Source: Saccostrea cucullata
Lineage: Eukaryota
Length of the DNA: 64,000 nt
Direction: 5' to 3'
NCBI RefSeq assembly: GCF_032062105.1
Contig: NW_026921836.1
Location: forward strand, 1-64,000
The notes beneath the pieces were generated by a model. That model was not told the origin of the DNA, made no database searches, and saw only the letters and a list, made by a program, of their open reading frames with translations. Positions 11,001 through 12,862 of this stretch are shown piece by piece (the stretch's first letter is position 1; each line of letters starts with the position of its first letter). Both the position numbers and the translations under genes were made by a program.

Positions 11001-11635
11001 ATAGTATCTGTTACCGATTTATTTATCATATCGTTCCTTATAAAATCATCTAAATTACCACATCTAGCATTTAAGTCTCCTGTTAAATAAACCTTTCCCT
11101 TGCTAGCAAATCTGCAAATTGATTCTTCGAAATACTGAAAAATATCTACATCTTCTTTTTTATAAAAAGTACTTTTTTCTGGTGGTATGTAGCAAGAAGC
11201 TGAATAAATAGGCTTTTCATTTACATTTGACTCTTTTCTAATTTCTAGCCAGATAACAGTATTGCAAAAACATTCTATAATATCAACACTGATACTGGGC
11301 ACGTTTCTATAAAAAATGACAATACCTCCCCCTCTTCCACAATTTCTAGGGAAAGTGTAACAATTGTACTCATCTAAATAAATACACAATTCATCACCTG
11401 CACAGATCCAGCATTCTAAAAGAACTATGATATCATATTTATTTACCATATTTACAAACTCCTTATCTTTCAGCTTTTGTCTAATACCCTTATTTACATT
11501 CCAAACTATGAACGAAAGGTTAGAAGTGAAGTCACTGACCTCTCTACCTCTACAAAGTTGATCAGTCACATGATTGCTGCGGCCGCACTCACGATGAAGA
11601 ACGTCACGCTGCTTGAATGTGGCGGCCACGCACTC
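8095..11635 (-). pseudogene. LINE ORF2 (APE endonuclease plus RT) with two frameshifts
   Basis: Motifs WNV, LTGDLNAR, SDH, YRGITL, QFGFK, QGEIPSPLLF, YADD and CEIC-x8-H-x4-C. Frameshifts at ~10000 (next to a 9-bp duplication) and ~9285. Confidence 0.92.
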
Positions 11636-12862
11636 CTATCTGAAACCCCTTGCAGTGCCCTGCGATGGAGCGTGGCTCTGGTTATTATTTGCGTTCATAT
11701 CATAATCCATAGGATCGTTCGTGTCCCAATCTTTTTCCTCTGCGTACATGTAGCTATGATTGTCCGGGTCATACTGCCGACCGTTCACAATTAACTTATC
11801 GCGCACAAGTTTGACATGCGCCCCCTCGCCACGTAGTTGGCGCATGATTGGTATGAGCTCCCGTCGACGTTTTTCCATGGTCACTGGATATTGTCTATGT
11901 ACTCCAAAGGATGTTCCCCGTAGCCAACTTGATCGTTCCAATACCATATCCAGATCTTCTTGATACAGGAGGCGAGCAACAATTGGTCGGGGTTTCCCTT
12001 TAGTGAAGCGTCCGAAGCGATGGACGTTACTGAATTCTACGTGATGCGTAACCTCCAGCTCGTTGTAAAGAAATTGACGCAGCTTTTCCTGTGTATTTTC
12101 ATTCTTTCTCTCTCCTCCCAAACCACTAAATACCAAGTTCATTTTCATGGACCTAAACTGTAAATCTGTTATTGTTTCTTGCATTTGAATTTTATCTCGT
12201 CTTAAGTGGTCCATATTTTTTGCCATGCCTTCTATCATCTTTGAATGTCTTGAAAGCTCAGTGTCAGCATTCTTGATCTTGCTTTGGGCTGTTCGTACCT
12301 GGCCTTGGACGGTTTCTGTATCGAGCTTTGTTTGTTGGGTAATTTGTTTTACAGAGGACATCGCAACTGTCATTTCTGTGACATTTTTTTTACTAGTTTC
12401 AAAAGTCTGATTCATAAATTCCATCGCCTTTTCAACTTCGGTTATTCTTTTATCCGCTAAGCAGACTGTATTTTTAACTGTTCTTAATTCCGTTTCAAAC
12501 TGGCTTAGTTTCATTTCAATAATGTCCAGTTTTTGTAATTTCCGATTCATTTCATTAACTGTCTGGGTAAGTAAGTCAATTCTACCACAAAGGGACTCAT
12601 TTAATTTGTTGATTGGTGAAAGAATTTCCATTCCCACAAAGGTTGCCTGAGGGCCTTGGGGACCTTCGGAAATCATTGTCGCCCCATTCAACCCGTTTTC
12701 TCTGTCTTTCGTGGTCGATACAGGCGTCGAGCTCATGCGTGGAGCTGAGAAGTCTTCACTCTGAGTATTCTTTACTGGTATTTTACTATAACTTTCACCA
12801 CTGATATTTGGATTGTCATTTTTTCTCTTTGGATTTCTCTTTTGAGTTTCACTTGCCATCAT
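11636..12862 (-). CDS. LINE ORF1 protein (coiled coil plus RRM/CTD-like region)
   Basis: 408-aa ORF with a long heptad region, then RSMKMNLVFSGL, VHRFG, PRPIVARL and KLVRDKLIVNG, typical of this ORF1 type. Confidence 0.88.
   Translation of the reverse strand: MMASETQKRNPKRKNDNPNISGESYSKIPVKNTQSEDFSAPRMSSTPVSTTKDRENGLNGATMISEGPQGPQATFVGMEILSPINKLNESLCGRIDLLTQTVNEMNRKLQKLDIIEMKLSQFETELRTVKNTVCLADKRITEVEKAMEFMNQTFETSKKNVTEMTVAMSSVKQITQQTKLDTETVQGQVRTAQSKIKNADTELSRHSKMIEGMAKNMDHLRRDKIQMQETITDLQFRSMKMNLVFSGLGGERKNENTQEKLRQFLYNELEVTHHVEFSNVHRFGRFTKGKPRPIVARLLYQEDLDMVLERSSWLRGTSFGVHRQYPVTMEKRRRELIPIMRQLRGEGAHVKLVRDKLIVNGRQYDPDNHSYMYAEEKDWDTNDPMDYDMNANNNQSHAPSQGTARGFR

Follow-up and report, generated by a model that had tools for sequence, protein, structure and literature searches.

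A LINE whose two open reading frames share one frame across a single UAG lies in the window, by which we mean the whole analysed stretch of 64,000 nucleotides. This raises the question how its second frame (ORF2), which has no AUG ahead of its endonuclease domain, is translated. How LINEs translate ORF2 is described as an open question (PMC3894237). The modes named in reviews are stop-start coupling, reinitiation, IRES and 2A (PMC5972666, PMC3894237, PMC5009743), and for Paramecium frameshifting or read-through was raised, as a suggestion only (PMC5405496). A reading of this locus made from its letters alone (the sequence-only reading) had proposed that ORF2 is produced either as an ORF1-ORF2 fusion by readthrough or by reinitiation at a non-AUG codon, and had stated that the LINEs studied so far use reinitiation or coupling. 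Such precedents do exist, but the statement misses the read-through suggested from consensus sequences for the Group 3 non-LTR elements of Paramecium tetraurelia (PMC5405496). Between the two proposed routes our analysis favours readthrough: start codons are scarce in the linker, and the identity and context of the stop codon are conserved whereas the ORF2 stops are not. Comparison of related sequences makes it likely that, throughout the clade, the ORF2 protein is made as an ORF1-ORF2 fusion by programmed UAG stop-codon readthrough.

The element and its junction

The element is an APE-type two-ORF non-LTR retrotransposon (LINE) with an L1-type ORF1. It is full-length, about 5.0 kb, and occupies 7974..12986 on the minus strand, as do all its features given below. 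The 5' limit at about 12986 is where the sister copies L017, L018 and L023 start to match, and five sisters have coincident 3' ends at its tail. Copies are dispersed on many contigs and have their 3' ends in common. ORF1 (11636..12859; stop to stop 12868-11636) encodes 407 amino acids plus the stop and contains a coiled-coil-like region, an L1-type RRM, a C-terminal domain and a low-complexity tail. A profile of 24 ORF1 sequences matched the RRM of LINE-1 ORF1p (2w7a) with E=0.005, and a Pfam search of ORF1 gave weak coiled-coil-type matches alone and no family specific to this ORF1. ORF2 contains an APE endonuclease domain (10715..11518; PF14529, E=1.7e-7; PF03372, E=4.7e-6) with the motif-1 Asn at 11500-11498. 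A reverse transcriptase and a C-terminal Cys/His region follow at 8095..10034, in two pieces in the window copy (RVT_1, E=9.6e-19 and 4.1e-10). The best solved relative of ORF2 is LINE-1 ORF2p (E=8.5e-53). The 3' tail (7974..7995) is made of short A-rich tandem units (AATAC-like), which L022 and L025 carry as well. No protease domain was seen in the element.

We tentatively call the element RTEX-like, a clade label that rests on likeness of features. An ORF1, a short tandem-repeat 3' tail and a length of about 5 kb are all present, and these traits are not exclusive to RTEX. The likeness to RTEX (RTE-X) elements also extends to an APE-RT ORF2 with a C-terminal Cys/His motif, and the length of 5.0 kb compares with a mean of 4937 bp reported in a survey of bivalves (PMC10294476).

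The window copy is probably dead, as frameshifts interrupt its ORF2 at two places (near 10000 and 9300). Its in-frame junction is not a decay artefact: in the intact sisters L016 and L018 an ORF2 of 1174 codons runs unbroken from directly behind the TAG, and its first Met is codon 203. The minus strand reads AGG GGT TTC AGA TAG GAG TGC GTG GCC GCC as the sequence-only reading had it, and the candidate readthrough site is the TAG at 11638-11636 (11636..11638), the single in-frame stop that closes ORF1. The frame after this stop is open for 553 codons (11635-9974) and runs into the APE endonuclease, so that ORF2 does continue the ORF1 frame. A linker of 117 nt (39 codons; 11519..11635) leads from the UAG to the first endonuclease strand and contains neither a stop nor an in-frame AUG. 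The first in-frame ATG was said to lie past the WNV motif, and we found it there, at 11449-11447 (codon 63 after the stop, the Asn of the motif being codon 46). It is private to the window copy, and the 10 other aligned copies have ATT at this position. An in-frame AUG ahead of the endonuclease was found nowhere in the window family. An out-of-frame AUG-UGA (11571-11566) is present in the window copy as described, but it is lost in 2 of 11 copies. As a route to ORF2 it was rejected, both for this absence and for its inability to yield ORF2.

A sense codon in the family consensus had been named as a finding that would refute the proposal, but UAG is the consensus. TAG-G is kept in 9 of 11 aligned copies, the other two being an error-rich copy with TGG and a copy with a deletion. 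In a wider set of 127 contigs, of which 10 had no coverage of the junction, TAGG was found in 110 of the 117 covered. The other seven have TCGG (two), TGGG, CAGG, a deletion, an inserted G and TAGA (one each). The UAG is changed to TCG or CAG in L042 and L043 (G000:C2965, C8698) and L103 (C3848), and L042 and L043 have an additional earlier TAA within the ORF1 tail. Among the surveyed copies we found no subfamily that had expanded with a sense codon at the junction.

The junction across related families

To compare the junction between families, the host genome was searched with the ORF1 RRM region, a query that is blind to the junction. From 544 candidates 150 were scored. Of these, 100 matches were taken whole, the other 50 being members of the window family, near-duplicates and fragments, and together with the window and two sisters they form a survey set of 103 sequences. 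The first endonuclease motif was present in 90 of the 103, and 13 gave no motif-1 match. The nearest in-frame stop upstream of the motif was TAG-G in 80 of the 90, and in 70 of these 80 it was also the first stop of ORF1; most of the remaining survey sequences have frameshifts or rearrangements. The sequences fell into 29 clusters, and 26 family representatives were kept after clusters L077, L078 and L145 had been merged into other families. The unrelated element L120 was excluded, and L125 (UAG) was preferred to L103 (CAG) as representative of its family. The reverse transcriptases have a median identity of 52% (24 rows, range 28-97%). As a few families share near-identical reverse transcriptases, the 26 families represent about 20 independent lineages.

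All 26 representatives have UAG upstream of the endonuclease frame, and 25 have G at +4. The UAG is the first stop of ORF1 in 25 of 26; the exception, L074, has a frameshifted tail, but its sister L066 shows the same arrangement. The stops of ORF2 served as a control and are mixed (TAA 11, TGA 7, TAG 6 and TAGG 0 in 24 clusters). The linkers vary from 18 to 132 nt and the frame is kept in all 26 divergent families, the opposite of the unconserved frame relationship that had been named as evidence against a fusion. In 486 linker codons there is no in-frame stop, against 20 and 53 in the other two frames. This absence is informative because the stop reached backward from the endonuclease is the same as the one reached forward from ORF1. 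The low-complexity tail of ORF1 extends about 20-210 residues beyond the conserved region. In families L058, L059 and L060 the tail measures 177-210 aa before the UAG and the ORF2 frame is still kept; in the L058/L059 family it is tandemly repeated.

A shared frame with an internal UAG would also be seen if the host code read UAG as an amino acid and the element were one ORF. Codes in which UAG is a sense codon occur in some eukaryotes, but 13 ORF2 frames of 818-1202 codons contain no in-frame TAG, and TAG ends ORF2 itself in 6 of 24 clusters. Code reassignment was rejected on these grounds, and we give it practically no chance.

In 25 of 26 families the motif-1 Asn precedes the first in-frame AUG. 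Only L101 departs from this order; it is a broken copy, and the early AUG is missing from its sister. The same order speaks against stop-start coupling of the SART1 type, which calls for an AUG in the ORF2 frame that overlaps the ORF1 stop or lies near it. The motif-1 Asn and motif-2 Glu are invariant in 21 families, and the APE residues N, E, Y, D, N and D are likewise invariant across 21 families. From the invariance of the motif-1 Asn and motif-2 Glu we infer that the stretch of ORF2 upstream of the first AUG is translated under selection.

Such translation could also begin anew in the linker, if ribosomes terminated at the UAG, were held by a 3' structure and reinitiated at a non-AUG codon, which would release a free ORF2 protein. 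Reinitiation has precedents among LINEs, being proposed for mammalian L1 and shown, with an AUG and a downstream structure, for SART1 (PMC5972666, PMC5009743). L1 is moreover thought to begin ORF2 independently of its AUG (PMC5009743), and the absence of an AUG alone therefore proves little. A near-cognate start (GUG, ACG, UUG or CUG) is in frame in 9 of 26 linkers. Yet the other 17 have neither an in-frame AUG nor an in-frame CUG, GUG, ACG or UUG, and no start-codon position is conserved. Nor does reinitiation predict a fixed in-frame UAG followed by G alongside varied ORF2 stops. We consider this route, the strongest competitor of readthrough, unlikely, and prefer readthrough.

The invariant AG and G+4 would also be accounted for if splicing or trans-splicing used UAG/G as its 3' acceptor (YAG|G), the spliced RNA supplying an upstream AUG for ORF2. 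TAG|G agrees with the 3' splice acceptor consensus, although CAG is the commoner acceptor. However, CAG is used by no family, the 16 nt upstream show no polypyrimidine tract (mean pyrimidine fraction 0.43), and conservation lies downstream of the site, not upstream. Editing is a further possibility: if A-to-I conversion turned UAG into UIG (Trp) in a fraction of the transcripts, the same fusion would arise with no ribosomal readthrough. The amber/W site of hepatitis delta is an example of A-to-I editing of UAG, the triplet that ADAR prefers. In some folds the UAG sits beside or within a helix, and one genomic copy is TGG. Against this, edited RNA would be copied to DNA, yet TGG occurs in 1 of 117 covered contigs, beside two TCG and one CAG, and the copy with TGG contains many errors (87% identity, 145 gap openings). 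In the average fold, pairing is also lowest at the U and A of the stop (0.15 and 0.22).

RNA reads bear on both of these explanations. Reads of the window family were found in two raw-read runs (17 and 71, from both strands), with a depth at the junction of about 1-4 per run. No joints were seen among these 88 reads at this depth, and two contigs span the junction gap-free. Position 11637 was unchanged among the rows displayed (all but 26, at low depth). The reads are weak evidence against splicing and editing. Taken with the genomic data, they leave the acceptor explanation very unlikely, and editing is equally improbable.

Stop-codon context and predicted RNA structure

Conservation around the UAG is confined to its 3' side, and upstream of the stop there is no conserved position (at most 0.38 bits). 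Downstream, G+4 is found in 25 of the 26 families, a purine at +5 in 25, C+9 in 21, G+13 in 25 and G+16 in 22; in the window this context (+4 to +19) corresponds to 11620..11635. G+4, C+9 and G+13 are kept despite differing amino acids, a sign of constraint at the RNA level. The hexamers that define type III readthrough signals (UAGGGV, UAGGUA and UAGGAU; PMC13517186) are matched by 15 of 26 families, and 11 of 26 fall outside them, including the window with UAG-GAG. L155 (G000:C8322), the sole family with A+4, reads UAG AGG GGU CAG, near the UAG GGR NGU CAG of MoMLV (PMC13517186). The GC-rich island that was noticed in the window is borne out by the families, with a mean GC content over the 26 of 63% at +4..+21 and 30% at +61..+300.

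A stem starting three nucleotides after the UAG had been proposed, with a second helix inside it, and here the two parts fared differently. The outer arms, predicted at +7 to +17 (5' arm, 11622..11632) and at 11575..11586 (3' arm, identical in 10 of 11 copies), are present in the minimum-energy structure and have counterparts in the nearest families. The inner CAUUCA/UGAGUG helix did not hold up: its CAUUCA arm is found in the window copy alone, and other copies have CAUCCA or CAGCCG. Compared with 200 shuffles, the fold at the window junction is of modest stability, with z-scores of -1.6 to -1.9 in three fold windows, where 10-18 shuffles folded as well, and +0.84 in a fourth fold window that takes in upstream sequence.

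Across families, the predicted duplex of +7..+21 with the family's own downstream region is more stable than with swapped regions (-11.1 vs -9.9 kcal/mol, permutation p=0.004), and stays so when the family of the window is left out (-10.6 vs -9.7, p=0.016); both p-values are optimistic, as the families are related. At +9..+18 the pairing probability is 0.58, compared with 0.48 for synonymously recoded controls, and 20 of 26 families exceed their controls. The excess in duplex stability or pairing is marked in some families but absent in L058, L097, L108, L114 and L134. L056, L061 and L064, which are closest to the window family at +7..+21, show a corresponding GC-rich core; its pair at +14 is C-G, U-G and U-A as read by eye. 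We also considered one shared helix between an arm at +8..+17 and the motif-1 codons, which is attractive in L100 and L125, but rejected it as its register shifts between families. The comparisons modestly support the outer stem of the sequence-only reading as real. A 3' helix appears plausible as a feature of individual families, and the sequence context is the firmer signal.

The proposed readthrough compared with known systems

Readthrough is favoured because it explains together the frame, the identity of the stop, its 3' context, the open linker and the missing start codon. Most ribosomes would terminate at the UAG and release ORF1p, and in a few per cent, if gammaretroviruses are a guide, a near-cognate tRNA would insert an amino acid and elongation would continue. 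Such occasional readthrough would result in a high ORF1p:ORF2p ratio. The stimulator is less secure; it may consist of the purine-rich segment from +4 to +17 and, in at least some families, a 3' helix that would start about 8-12 nt from the first base of the stop. As no protease domain was seen, the fusion would stay uncleaved. More speculatively, it could join ORF1p multimers via the coiled coil and so deliver the enzyme to its own RNA, and the low-complexity ORF1 tail and the linker could act as a tether.

The junction resembles type III viral readthrough, known from MoMLV gag-pol and the tombusvirus CIRV, in that a G and a purine-rich run come after the UAG (PMC13517186) and that a structural protein is encoded upstream and a polymerase downstream in one frame. 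The conserved G+13 lies near the start of the MoMLV pseudoknot at +12, and readthrough in MoMLV ranges from 1 to 12% in the assays tabulated in PMC13517186. Unlike the viral cases, the element is non-LTR, with an L1-type ORF1, an APE-RT and no protease seen; its +6 position is looser (GAA, GAC and GAG are common), and the predicted helix varies by family. In type III signals a spacer of about 8 nt further separates the stop from an RNA structure that stimulates readthrough. By this comparison the junction would work like type III readthrough, with partial agreement to the strict definition in both hexamer and structure.

Among LINEs, SART1 and mammalian L1 are similar in their bicistronic RNA and low ORF2 output (PMC5972666, PMC3894237, PMC5009743); SART1 also needs a structure downstream of its junction (PMC5972666), and mammalian L1 shares the L1-type ORF1 RRM. 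They differ in that stop and start overlap as UAAUG in SART1 and that L1 reinitiates after a spacer of 63 nt (PMC5972666, PMC3894237, PMC5009743). The spacer of the present LINE contains neither an AUG nor a stop.

A further case is that of Paramecium, where UGA is the only stop codon and the signal therefore cannot be UAG-G. Its Group 3 elements are likewise LINEs of the APE-RT type in which ORF2 continues the frame of ORF1 beyond an in-frame stop; they form a ciliate-specific clade, and the passage of the paper that concerns them makes the suggestion in one sentence, with no analysis of stop context or structure (PMC5405496). Read-through in a LINE has thus been suggested before. For animal LINEs, the literature searched, which was thin on subscription journals and Repbase entries, yielded no paper that describes readthrough of the UAG type.

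Relatives outside the host genome came from a survey of metagenomes, which gave 80 loci, 34 of them including the start of the endonuclease. The families of the host genome fall in a clade of 35 rows, with a branch support of only 85 (SH-aLRT, quick tree). The 11 metagenome loci inside it have UAG-G (8), UAA-G (1), UAG-CAG (1) and an unclear junction (1). Just outside, UAG-G is found in L191 and L195 and UAG-CAA in L217. In L167 and L168 an AUG leads ORF2 and the upstream ORF is in a different frame; these upstream ORFs are unusually long (891 and 803 codons). The distant LINEs have an in-frame AUG in 15 of 16 cases and mixed stops. The metagenome loci with UAG-G retain G+13 in 9 of 11 cases and C+9 in 4 of 11. 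An AUG is located in the first endonuclease strand in the metagenome loci L156, L191 and L217, and inside or just before this strand when L101 is counted with them. UAG followed by CAG or CAA, a leaky context like that of type I, occurs at L161:209-214 and L217:1358-1363 (approximate positions, plus strand). Scans of viral contigs with the ORF1 and ORF2 alignments returned no relatives, and a search for protein homologs gave 22 ORF2-like proteins, which come without DNA context at the junction.

These data can be read more broadly. A deep and widespread LINE clade would have independently evolved a gammaretrovirus-style UAG-G cassette (consensus UAG GRN NNC NNN GRN G, frequently accompanied by a 3' helix), the endonuclease-RT would exist solely as an uncleaved fusion within ORF1p multimers, and lineages would swap UAG-G, UAG-CAR and AUG junctions. 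We lean slightly towards this, and with the same slight preference regard the cassette as a Gag-Pol-like strategy without Gag or protease. The clade supplies a precise and testable signal in 26 natural variants within one genome. If readthrough is confirmed, ORF2p exists as an ORF1 fusion, which would change the view of ribonucleoprotein particles and cis-preference. Many natural type III readthrough cassettes would be added outside viruses, and annotation that places the ORF2 start at the first AUG, or counts the UAG as damage, would misread active elements.

The window contains several further features. A second, decayed LINE opens with a 2A-like motif, GDIETNPGP, at 6776-6750 (minus strand, within 6995-6504), just before its endonuclease, and a reverse transcriptase remnant at 6303-5716 (RVT_1, E=0.0017). 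The motif fits the DxExNPGP pattern given in PMC3894237, and two kinds of recoding LINE adjoin in the window. A direct duplication of about 6 kb (34692-40789 and 45591-51729, plus strand, 97% identity) contains identical open frames of 168 codons (37296-37802 and 48236-48742), for which there was no Pfam match. A rhodopsin-family GPCR is encoded in a single frame at 21038-22372 (plus strand; 7tm_1, E=9.4e-8). Lastly, the frame at 54553-55152 (plus strand) is tyrosine-recombinase/DUF3504-like with scores under the Pfam cut-offs, and we assume that it is possibly a Crypton-type remnant.
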